IMG/VR virus record: IMGVR_UViG_2563366979_000002
Location: 1-15,032 of that record
From: a virus
Taxonomy: Duplodnaviria > Heunggongvirae > Uroviricota > Caudoviricetes
Reading direction: 5' to 3' (one strand)
DNA length: 15,032 nucleotides
Positions 3,462-3,761 of this stretch are shown here, piece after piece (the stretch's first letter is position 1; every line of letters starts with the position of its first letter). Made by a program: the position numbers and the translations under genes. The notes under the pieces were generated by a model, which ran no database searches, was not told the DNA's origin, and was given only the letters and a program-made list of their open reading frames with translations.

Positions 3462-3761
3462 TTACCTTTCCCGATAGGTATATAGTTCATCATGTGCAAC
3501 CTTGCGATTGCGATGTATTCCCATTTCTTTCTCTACGCGTATTGCTGCATTGCGTAATGTTCTTGAGGTCGCGACTTCTCTTGAACTTACATTTTTTAAT
3601 GTAGCCGATTTAATGCAACGTTGAATTTGCCTCTGGATATACATCCGCTGGTCTGTCTGAGTCTCCTGACGATAATCCATCAGCACATCTTGCCAGCGAG
3701 CCGCAGCTCTGCGCCAAAGCCCTTTATTTTCAAGTTCTTCAGCTTTTTTATCTTTAACCAT
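3462..3761 (-). CDS. PerC-family-like small transcriptional regulator (99 aa from ATG at 3761; the track's 104-aa version starts at GTG 3776)
   Basis: Motif KAEELENKGLWRRAAARWQDVLMD resembles the conserved LE-KG-WRRAA-RW core of PerC/Pch regulators as I recall it; good SD (GGAG, 5-nt spacing) before the ATG at 3761. Confidence 0.55.
   Translation of the reverse strand: MVKDKKAEELENKGLWRRAAARWQDVLMDYRQETQTDQRMYIQRQIQRCIKSATLKNVSSREVATSRTLRNAAIRVEKEMGIHRNRKVAHDELYTYRER

Follow-up and report, generated by a model that had tools for sequence, protein, structure and literature searches.

Of the genes annotated as 'regulator' on prophages, satellites and phage-plasmids of E. coli, those for PerC-family proteins belong to the most frequent, and a mechanism is known in the PerC/PchABC branch only, the tested members differing in the sign of their effect at the same promoter. 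Pch relieves the silencing by H-NS, StpA and Hha at LEE1, an effect that is gone once the silencers are deleted (PMC4764244). Activation of LEE1 is confined to the PerC/PchABC subgroup, PchD, PchE and the copies on phage-inducible chromosomal islands (PICIs) being without effect (PMC6265319; PMC11773190). PchE represses csgD and curli and does not activate LEE (PMC6265319), and EcCIMP1_025, a PerC-like protein of a PICI, represses LEE1, for which an ANR-like action was suggested by its authors (PMC11773190). The ANR proteins are smaller than 10 kDa and consist of three helices, with a signature that includes W43 and R47 of helix 3 (PMC4983702). The window analysed here, a stretch of 15,032 nt of phage DNA, carries a gene (Table 1) that is a genuine, already annotated PerC-family member from an experimentally unstudied branch.

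Family membership and subgroup of the encoded protein

The minus-strand ORF extends over 3462..3776 and encodes 104 aa when read from a GTG codon, with an in-frame ATG at 3761 that yields 99 aa. Because an AGGAG sits five bases before this ATG, the 99-aa protein is the likely product, and the GTG start at 3776 was rejected on the same ground and because public databases contain the 99-aa sequence, the 104-aa form being absent there. The ORF is intact, and the identical protein, which carries the NCBI name 'PerC family transcriptional regulator', occurs in the assembly collection in 279 blocks. The gene also looks functional by its intact ORF, its Shine-Dalgarno sequence, this recurrence and a dN/dS of 0.33 against a 92%-identical plasmid variant, a figure with only 15 substitutions behind it.

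The protein belongs to the PerC family (PF06069). It matches the Pfam model at 55.5 bits (E 7e-15; gathering score, 22.6 bits) with residues 1-88 of its 99 aligned to positions 1-83 of the 90-position model, matches phrog_994 at E 5e-29, and retrieves PerC (E 3e-9), PchA (2e-9), PchD (4e-6) and PchE (3e-12) by BLASTP. The core A-x2-L-E-x5-R-R-A-x2-R-W, whose columns are invariant or nearly so in alignments of 9 sequences (including PerC, PchA, PchD, and PchE) and of 60 sequences, is complete (A7, L10, E11, R17, R18, A19, R22, and W23), and the motif KGLWRRAAARW occupies residues 13-23. All eight columns that are invariant among the 60 family members (E11, R17, R18, A19, R22, W23, C49, and G81) are kept, C49 being the invariant cysteine of the third helix, and the M-G-(I/L) motif near the C-terminus appears as EMGI at residues 79-82. 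The product is likewise a small protein (the family comprises about 85-105 aa), predicted to be all-helical and encoded on a mobile element, here a prophage remnant. The sequence-only reading, which had linked the gene to PerC and the Pch proteins through this motif and had proposed a family-model search and an alignment, is borne out, since the PF06069 match is significant and the conserved core, the invariant cysteine and the MG(I/L) motif are present.

An AlphaFold2 model of the protein has five helices (pLDDT 77.7), and the predicted fold is a basic all-helical hairpin bundle without a helix-turn-helix, a TPR-like helical hairpin of a type usual in protein binders. A sequence search of the PDB with the family profile gave chance-level matches to ribosomal protein uS3 only (E about 0.5) and no solved relative. 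In multiple alignment the protein is 25–35% identical to PerC, PchA, PchD, and PchE, with 25% for PerC and 28% for PchA, and average-linkage clustering places it with homologues from plasmid p108 and phage phi456, apart from the PerC, PchA, PchD, and PchE clusters. It belongs to a subgroup separate from all members that have been tested by experiment (PerC, PchABC, PchD, and PchE).

The prophage remnant and its mobile cassette

A 13.1-kb prophage remnant, integrated between ybhC and ybhB at the lambda attachment site and also bearing gtrABC, carries the gene. A second copy of the attachment core shows that the element spans 1331-14465. No repressor, N, replication or lysis genes were found between the att cores; genes for immunity, replication, lysis and the head are gone from the remnant, and phage early transcription therefore cannot reach the PerC-family gene. 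The excisionase gene is split, with PF07825 matching residues 1-35 only of its 47-aa ORF, and is intact at 72 aa in a collinear prophage at the same att site (L001). The adjoining DUF551 gene, truncated here, is intact at 217 aa in prophages (L010-L018); as the neighbour on the upstream side of the cassette it is conserved. The earlier placement of the gene in the int-xis-proximal accessory region of a cryptic prophage agrees with the integrase gene, the split xis and the lambda att cores.

Table 1. Positions of the PerC-family gene, its control region and the surrounding prophage features in the window
Feature	Position	Strand	Remarks
attL core GCTTTTTTATACTAA	1331..1345	+	Exact match; none expected by chance
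Lambda-type integrase	1419..2489	-	From the ORF list; tyrosine recombinase in collinear L001; Pfam Phage_integrase in matching loci
Excisionase pseudogene	2467..2684	-	Split into ORFs of 47 and 49 aa
1,240-bp insert	3018..4257		blastn breakpoints against collinear prophage L001, 3017/3018 and 4257/4258
62-aa phage ORF	3036..3224	-	phrog_10916, E 3e-36; downstream of the PerC-family gene
694-bp core cassette	3215..3908		Gene with 147 bp upstream and 247 bp downstream
AT-rich non-coding spacer	3225..3461		Downstream of the gene, mostly in the mobile core; 3215-3461 94% identical in P1-like plasmids
PerC-family gene	3462..3761	-	99 aa, 11.95 kDa, pI 10.1
Shine-Dalgarno AGGAG	3767..3771	-	Read from the sequence; five bases before the ATG at 3761
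Inverted repeat AATAATAACTATC / GATAGTTATTATT	3788..3823		Perfect, 13 bp, with 10-nt spacer; 27-62 nt before the start codon
GTTATTATT, three copies in alternating orientation	3788..3853		Two copies are the arms of the inverted repeat; the other overlaps the -10 of the promoter-like site
Promoter-like site, sigma-70, TTGAAT-18-TATTAT	3846..3875	-	About 85 nt before the ATG; consensus scan 9/12
Terminator-like hairpin with U-rich tract	4150..4190	-	Between the upstream operon and the cassette; hairpin at about 4183-4160
Truncated dATP/dGTP pyrophosphohydrolase-DUF551 gene	4274..4651	-	125 aa; Pfam PF04447, PF04448
attR core	14451..14465	+	Second copy of attL core GCTTTTTTATACTAA

The collinear prophage lacks the 1,240-bp insert and has in its place 278 bp with a DUF4222 gene, both sides matching the window at 96–98%. 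Within the insert, the core shares 93.8% identity by blastn with eight P1-like phage-plasmids (L002-L009), the flanks being unrelated on the downstream side; because the 694-bp core recurs at this level (94%) on such plasmids, it behaves as a mobile accessory cassette, and exchange of this cassette with P1-like phage-plasmids has taken place. It is carried by ordinary lambdoid prophages and by P1-like plasmids, in E. coli and E. marmotae, and it was seen in prophages at three chromosomal sites, beside a terminase gene in a prophage of another type, and on P1-like plasmids of about 90 kb. In the intact lambdoid prophages it closes the early-left gene block at its far end, with the DUF551-type gene on one side and xis/int on the other. 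The branch to which the gene belongs is rare: near-identity DNA searches with 3200-3900 had a match neither among 5,426 complete E. coli genomes nor among 50,697 phage records, a search in distant mode retrieved only PerC genes about 65–70% identical, and a scan of species-representative genomes found no relative.

The base composition also sets the cassette apart, with GC contents of 38.6% for the insert, 36.7% for the core and 42.7% for the coding sequence, compared with 49.5% in the neighbouring DUF551 gene and 56.7% in the tail genes. The flanks that the sequence-only reading had called AT-rich have 31.6% (3225-3461) and 28.9% GC (3762-3858) against 48.7% in the whole window. Its view of the gene as a moron likewise withstands comparison, in that a discrete AT-rich block unlike the surrounding phage genes in composition (flanks 29–32% GC) is present or absent between collinear phage genomes, occurs in unrelated backbones, and is provided with a terminator-like hairpin upstream and a promoter-like site. 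The statement that the gene sits alone was right in part: its flanks are AT-rich and non-coding, but the 62-aa phage ORF lies downstream on the same strand, and the upstream non-coding DNA continues to about 4187 (38% GC over 3762-4273). Two further candidates in this region were set aside. A 62-aa plus-strand ORF at 3859-4047, considered as a divergent small membrane protein, has no ribosome-binding site and no family match, is not called in any related contig, and for the most part falls in a segment missing from the P1-like copies. A defence-system role was dropped because PADLOC gave no match for the PerC-family gene or its neighbours.

The control region and its RNA features

The promoter-like site lies inside the core common to the P1-like plasmids, and the count of sigma-70-like sites in the region is no higher than the shuffle expectation. 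The inverted repeat downstream of it is kept in the P1-like copy and could be a leader hairpin or an operator; readings of the repeat as a Fur box or an IHF site were tried by eye, with matches too weak to claim. The leader RNA from 3845 to 3755 folds with -20 kcal/mol (z -3.3), a stability reached in none of 200 shuffles, and the base of its perfect AU-rich 13-bp hairpin pairs with the Shine-Dalgarno sequence. The element GTTATTATT has three matches in the window where 0.13 are expected, and 0 of 200 shuffles reach three. It is a long shot that these repeats, which span the -10 region, and the pairing hairpin would together form a self-contained sensory switch (an auto-operator, or a temperature- or silencer-sensitive leader) that sets when a new basic branch of a PerC/ANR superfamily is produced, the protein then being a phage- and phage-plasmid-borne anti-silencer directed at other AT-rich cargo of the same elements, such as the gtrABC operon for O-antigen modification, and not at LEE.

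The terminator-like hairpin upstream of the cassette has a folding energy of -18.2 kcal/mol (z -2.0), and in the P1-like copy a clean GCGGGG...CCCCGC stem precedes a U tract. The downstream spacer has no stable RNA structure (z +1.25), and no intrinsic terminator was found directly downstream of the gene; the nearest terminator-like sites on the minus strand, both consensus matches, are at 2962..2941 and 2930..2911, past the 62-aa ORF, which is possibly co-transcribed with the PerC-family gene. Rfam returned no RNA family in the window, and a small-RNA reading of the flanks was rejected on this result and on the lack of a stable fold in the spacer.

Proposed mode of action, alternatives and comparison with known systems

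The explanation that best accounts for the whole, and that is held with moderate confidence, is that the gene, which is the payload of the cassette, would be expressed from its own promoter and that its product would be a trans modulator of H-NS-silenced promoters. Expression, if any, would come from the gene's own promoter-like site (3875-3846), which would itself probably be silenced by H-NS and perhaps be controlled through the GTTATTATT repeats and the leader hairpin. The basic protein would carry the family-invariant face A7/E11/R17-R18-A19/R22-W23 on its N-terminal helical hairpin and would act in trans on the nucleoid-silenced (H-NS/StpA/Hha) AT-rich promoters of horizontally acquired genes, with PchA at LEE1 as the precedent, loosening the silencing complex and not recruiting RNA polymerase via a classical DNA-binding domain; its target promoters need not include LEE. 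We infer that such trans modulation is the most likely mechanism, and the pI of 10.1, as basic as in the two DNA-associated activators PerC and PchA, was counted for it. Several observations were counted against it: the source proteins are only 25–32% identical to the 99-aa protein; function is not conserved at such distances, with LEE1 activated, unaffected or repressed (PMC6265319; PMC11773190); the closest tested relative by sequence, PchE, is a csgD repressor (PMC6265319); and the N-terminal signature is common to the ANR proteins, which act by protein-protein contact (PMC4983702). That the protein may regulate host genes is a reasonable reading. Activation of LEE cannot be assumed, because the effect on LEE1 varies among members this far apart, from activation through none to repression, and the cross-activation of LEE that the sequence-only reading had in mind is unlikely.

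Among the alternatives, a tentative place is left for an ANR-like anti-activator or silencer-binder that would work purely by contacting an AraC/XylS-family activator and/or H-NS and whose main effect would be to turn down adhesin or virulence operons, just as EcCIMP1_025 represses LEE1 with the ANR-like action suggested for it (PMC11773190). The ANR family (Aar, NCBIfam NF033650) shares with the 99-aa protein a signature of helices 1-2, A-x3-E-x7-A-x3-W, in which A7, E11, A19, and W23 are spaced as A10, E14, A22, and W26 of the ANR signature, and Aar becomes inactive when its equivalent residues A14, E18, and A26 are mutated (PMC4983702). Weak matches to the ANR model were obtained in 51 of the 60 PerC-family sequences (best E 5.6e-8); the 99-aa protein matches it at residues 5-25 only, with 13.4 bits against a cut-off of 32. 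Both kinds of protein are small and all-helical, the TPR-like hairpin without a helix-turn-helix suits a protein binder, a BFVD match is a phage 'ANR family' protein, and the 66%-identical plasmid homologue has genes for a MarR regulator and an adhesin beside it. The ANRs regulate negatively through protein binding and are functionally tied to H-NS (PMC4983702; PMC5570504), which Aar binds directly (PMC5570504). PchA failed to co-precipitate with H-NS (unpublished observation cited in PMC4764244). With 99 aa and five helices, the protein is about 40 residues longer than the ANRs and has two extra helices; the ANR helix-3 tryptophan was not found in it, and W43/R47 are not clearly present when compared by eye with the published signature (PMC4983702). 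An AraC-type ORF was found neither in the 15-kb window nor beside the cassette in 18 related loci.

A role in phage biology, in which the protein would regulate genes of its own phage, a competing phage or a satellite (late and packaging functions, lysogeny or superinfection) with only incidental effects on the host, is unlikely. For phages, phage-plasmids and PICI satellites alike, family members are a standard component (PMC6092414; PMC11773190), the slots that the cassette occupies are always early-region or accessory slots of phages, it stands directly upstream of the small terminase gene in one prophage (L017), pchE sits between the replication and head genes of Sakai prophage Sp7, and the PHROG families that match the N-terminus of the 99-aa protein are labelled transcriptional activator. 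However, the collinear prophage does without the cassette, which is thus dispensable; its movement between lambdoid and P1-like backbones, which are unrelated, speaks against a regulatory role tied to one backbone; the gene is intact in a remnant with almost no phage genes left to regulate; and a PADLOC defence-system match is lacking.

It is also rather improbable that the gene is a silent passenger, kept off by H-NS and intact only through too little time for decay. The carrier is heavily degraded, with a large internal deletion, the split xis and the truncated DUF551 gene, the flanks are very AT-rich, like H-NS targets, and the promoter evidence is weak; yet the ORF, Shine-Dalgarno sequence, promoter-like site and leader are undamaged, the DNA is 99.6–100% identical to intact prophages over 2.3 kb, what survived the deletion are the two cargo modules, the cassette and gtrABC, and the dN/dS is 0.33. 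That the protein is a PerC/PchABC equivalent which would directly activate the ler (LEE1) promoter, and hence type III secretion, is very doubtful: it shares the family, the conserved core and the basic charge of PerC and PchA, and PerC and PchABC are interchangeable at LEE1 though distantly alike, as far as the summary of Porter 2005 in PMC5293775 goes, but it has low identity to both and clusters separately, LEE1 is not activated by Pch groups 2 and 3 or by the PICI copies, which are about as distant, and is repressed by one member (PMC6265319; PMC11773190), and the window and carrier contigs show no tie of the cassette to LEE-positive strains.

The branch combines the basic character of the anti-silencers with a compact cassette that moves between lambdoid phages and P1-like plasmids, and a defined regulon for it would help to decide whether PerC and ANR proteins form a single superfamily that modulates the H-NS complex. 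'PerC family regulator' is a correct annotation of the gene, and 'LEE activator' is not to be inferred from it.

Compared with the known systems, the PerC-like proteins of PICIs (EcCIMP1_025, the EcCIEDL933 and EcCICFT073 copies, and PchD) have the same family annotation, and their genes ride phage-related elements as accessory regulators (PMC11773190; PMC6092414), as does the gene described here, but their carrier is a satellite, whereas that of the present gene and its kin is a prophage or phage-plasmid; PchD is 26% identical to the 99-aa protein, and EcCIMP1_025 is likened to it by description. PerC (EPEC pEAF/pMAR2) and PchA/B/C (Pch group 1, EHEC lambdoid prophages) share with it the family and the invariant residues, are similar in size and positive charge (pI 9.8 for PerC and 10.3 for PchA), and are encoded by genes that are likewise AT-rich cargo of mobile elements; the Y of their LYRRAA motif corresponds to W16, the middle and C-terminal regions are unlike, and pchA is located in the late region near the Sp4 lysis genes, whereas the present gene is int-proximal. 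The closest tested relative, PchE (Pch group 3, E. coli O157:H7 Sakai ECs_1588, prophage Sp7), is 38% identical over 82 aa (E 3e-12) and has the Pfam family, the core, a similar length (90 versus 99 aa) and a phage-type carrier in common with the protein, but it is acidic (pI 5.7), lacks the insertion of three residues that follows helix 2 as well as the C-terminal HRNRKxAHDELY tail, and falls in another cluster. The nearest kin are the subgroup mates on plasmid p108_MLI108-3 (66% identity), phage phi456 (57%) and the P1-like phage-plasmids (92%), which share the LWRRAAARWQ motif and the EKEMGI(H/Y)R(N/D)RK tail. The p108 copy precedes the MarR regulator and an inverse autotransporter, and the phi456 copy is enclosed by IS elements; the upstream regions of these two do not align with that of the present gene, and the 92% variant of the P1-like plasmids has the whole 694-bp cassette in common with it, including the leader inverted repeat.

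Family membership and subgroup of the window protein

The PerC-like gene is taken as 3462-3761, the extent given by the sequence-only reading, because its ATG follows an AGGAG Shine-Dalgarno sequence and the 99-aa form is present in public collections; the 104-aa form that would begin at an alternative GTG at 3776 was not found there. That reading had assigned the product to the PerC family from a KGLWRRAAARW core, which lies at residues 13-23, and the assignment held on both points where it could have failed: Pfam PerC (PF06069) is matched over residues 1-88 with 55.5 bits (E 7e-15; gathering score 22.6), and the conserved core is retained in alignment with PerC (EPEC E2348/69 pMAR2) and PchA, PchD, and PchE (O157:H7 Sakai), all taken from annotated records. 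Identity in the joint alignment is 25% to PerC, 28% to PchA, 26% to PchD, and 35% to PchE (pairwise BLASTP E-values 3e-9, 2e-9, 4e-6, and 3e-12, respectively), and the window protein has all eight invariant residues of a 60-sequence family alignment (E11, R17, R18, A19, R22, W23, C49, and G81). Further matches are to phrog_994 (unknown function; E 5e-29) and to several PHROGs whose label is transcriptional activator. Every criterion that could be tested places the protein in the PerC family; the family is known and the annotation is already public, the identical sequence carrying the NCBI name 'PerC family transcriptional regulator'. By sequence, the window protein belongs neither to the PerC/PchABC functional group nor to the ANR family.

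When 1.84 billion representative proteins were scanned in full with HMMER, only 55 matched at E <= 1e-3, none more than 61% identical to the window protein (50% clustering level), and a profile search of a larger collection returned 277 members of the family. From these, 175 were clustered by average linkage together with the reference proteins, which placed PerC, PchA, PchD, and PchE in distinct clusters and the window protein in another, together with a 92%-identical variant, a 66%-identical copy on plasmid p108_MLI108-3, and a 57%-identical copy in the P1-like phage phi456. The subgroup is marked by LWRRAAARWQ with Trp instead of Tyr at position 16, a three-residue insertion after helix 2, and the tail EKEMGI(H/Y)R(N/D)RKxAH..LY. 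A literature search found no papers on it. Judged by its sequence, the window protein belongs to an uncharacterised PerC subgroup; its gene is carried on a well-delimited mobile cassette. On p108_MLI108-3 (NZ_CP117002.1, 4001-8297), the gene for the 66%-identical member immediately precedes a MarR-family regulator, with a large inverse-autotransporter (intimin/invasin-type) gene also downstream; these neighbours hint at a possible link between the subgroup and adhesin control.

The cassette and its carrier prophage remnant

The window spans ybhC to ybhB, and the element at 1331-14465 is a serotype-converting lambdoid prophage reduced to a 13.1-kb remnant. Genes for repressor, replication, lysis, head, and terminase are all missing between its att cores; a few early-left genes remain. 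Its xis is broken, and it probably cannot excise. Two small phage ORFs lie between int/xis and the PerC-like gene, upstream of which is a dATP/dGTP-pyrophosphohydrolase/DUF551 gene cut to 125 aa (intact phages have 217 aa). The truncated DUF551 gene is fused at a deletion junction (~4692/4729) to an opposite-strand DNA-circulation-protein gene. The remnant has kept cargo (gtrABC and the PerC-like cassette), and phage functions are gone. One public E. coli scaffold (L019) has the same arrangement, with 100% identity across the 2.4 kb compared.

Features of the prophage remnant and the PerC-like cassette
Feature	Position	Strand	Remarks
lambda att cores	1331-1345 and 14451-14465		15 bp, exact copies
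lambda-type int	1419-2489		
xis	2467-2684	-	split into 47-aa and 49-aa ORFs; intact (72 aa) in collinear L001
62-aa phage ORF	3036-3224	-	phrog_10916, E 3e-36; downstream of PerC-like gene
PerC-like gene	3462-3761	-	99 aa from ATG at 3761; stop ends at 3462
Shine-Dalgarno AGGAG	3771-3767	-	precedes ATG at 3761
Inverted repeat, perfect, 13 bp	3788-3800/3811-3823		after promoter-like site
Promoter-like site TTGAAT-18-TATTAT	3875..3846	-	consensus match; putative
Terminator-like hairpin and U tract	~4183-4160	-	-18.2 kcal/mol, z -2.0; predicted
29-aa hydrophobic ORF (MSWPEAFATVGVAIAVALVVFSICRWGDK)	4188-4277	-	overlaps DUF551 stop by ATGA
Mu-type baseplate and tail-fibre genes	4729-10980		opposite strand to PerC-like gene
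gtrC, gtrB, gtrA	11374-14107		after Mu-type genes

The gene had been described as standing alone between AT-rich islands. The flanks are indeed AT-rich (31.6% GC at 3225-3461 and 28.9% at 3762-3858, against 42.7% in the coding sequence and 48.7% in the whole window), but the upstream non-coding stretch reaches ~4187 rather than 3858, and the gene is followed on its own strand by the 62-aa phage ORF. L001, a collinear prophage that occupies this site in E. coli A26, matches the window to 3017 and resumes at 4258, with 278 bp carrying a DUF4222 gene between these breakpoints, and 3018-4257 (1,240 bp) is therefore an insert.

Intact lambdoid/P22-like prophages encode the exact protein at three sites on the chromosome (beside ybhC, torS, and dsdC), always between a DUF551-type gene or fragment and xis/int, and one other prophage type encodes it shortly before its small terminase gene (L017, 8001-9840; ~850 bp upstream, with a 112-aa gene intervening). 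PerC-family genes recur shortly before head or packaging modules; in Sakai Sp7, for example, pchE has ssb on one side and the major head protein gene on the other (L023, NC_002695.2, 11773-12045), and one database protein (P0120) has both Terminase_2 and PerC Pfam domains. The 92% variant is found on ~90-kb P1-like phage-plasmids, with C1 repressor, Cre-type recombinase, and phd/doc genes around it. A 694-bp core (3215-3908; the gene with 147 bp upstream and 247 bp downstream) is 93.8% identical between lambdoid and P1-like backgrounds, and dN/dS between the window gene and the 92% variant is 0.33, from only 15 substitutions. The AT-rich 238 bp at 3909-4146, present upstream in lambdoid copies and missing from P1-like plasmid copies, hold the best promoter-like match of the region (4109..4081, 10/12); a + strand 62-aa ORF at 3859-4047, mostly within them, was unsupported. 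The core is carried by five IMG/VR viral contigs. The cassette is rare: near-identical DNA was absent from 5,426 complete E. coli genomes and 50,697 phage records, and species-representative genomes contained no relatives. Even so, the protein is recorded in 279 assembly-collection blocks from E. coli and E. marmotae.

Putative control signals

Because the phage early promoters have been lost from the remnant, any expression would start inside the cassette. The 9-mer GTTATTATT has three copies in the window, which alternate in orientation and all fall at 3788-3853 (0.13 copies expected; three reached in 0/200 shuffles); two copies make up the inverted repeat, and the third overlaps the putative -10 hexamer. 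The P1-like copy has one mismatch in the promoter-proximal repeat. The predicted leader fold (-20 kcal/mol, z -3.3) pairs the Shine-Dalgarno sequence with an upstream CCCCUAU, and the only two leader variants available differ in loop and flanks, not in the stem, so that covariation is neither supported nor opposed. The repeats and leader hairpin could form an operator or leader switch. A further reading, speculative and improbable, makes them a regulatory switch and has the subgroup relieve the silencing of other phage cargo, for example gtrABC.

The 29-aa ORF, which gene calling picks up in three related contigs (L015, L017, and L019), may encode a small phage membrane peptide; the terminator-like hairpin comes next, with a cleaner version in the P1-like copy. 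No stable structure was found downstream of the PerC-like gene, and the next terminator-like sites on its strand (consensus matches) lie beyond the 62-aa ORF.

Proposed action and comparison with PerC, Pch, and ANR proteins

An AlphaFold2 model built with the 60-sequence alignment has five helices (5-13, 16-29, 33-56, 66-80, and 86-93; mean pLDDT 77.7, pTM 0.45). Activation of LEE1 by PchA depends on the presence of the H-NS/StpA/Hha silencing complex, and PchA lowers H-NS occupancy at the LEE1 promoter, in vitro as well as in vivo (PMC4764244). Taken with what is known of relatives, the family-invariant helical face of the window protein, its basic charge, and the lack of a classical DNA-binding fold suggest that it probably acts in trans to modulate silenced, AT-rich promoters of horizontal origin.

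The rival that comes closest is a protein-binding mode like that of the ANR protein Aar, which binds AraC-type activators and H-NS (PMC4983702, PMC5570504). The ANR signature A10, E14, A22, and W26 (PMC4983702) has the same spacing as A7, E11, A19, and W23 of the window protein, and the NCBIfam ANR model is matched weakly by 51/60 PerC-family proteins in the alignment (best E 5.6e-8); the window protein itself reaches 13.4 bits at its N-terminal hairpin, against a cut-off of 32. One PerC-family database entry (P0116) is named 'ANR family'. PerC and ANR proteins look like one superfamily with a common three-helix core, to which PerC proteins add a C-terminal extension. Direct activation of LEE is unlikely, because the window protein falls outside the sole subgroup with LEE activity: ler expression does not need Pch groups 2 and 3 (PMC6265319), and LEE1 is unaffected by PICI copies and repressed by EcCIMP1_025 (PMC11773190).

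Known relatives of the proposed modulator also act elsewhere: PerC alters nitrate-respiration genes and turns off the fim switch (PMC5293775), and PchE represses csgD and curli (PMC6265319). The window protein is strongly basic (pI 10.1), as are PerC (9.8) and PchA (10.3), unlike PchD (8.5) and PchE (5.7).
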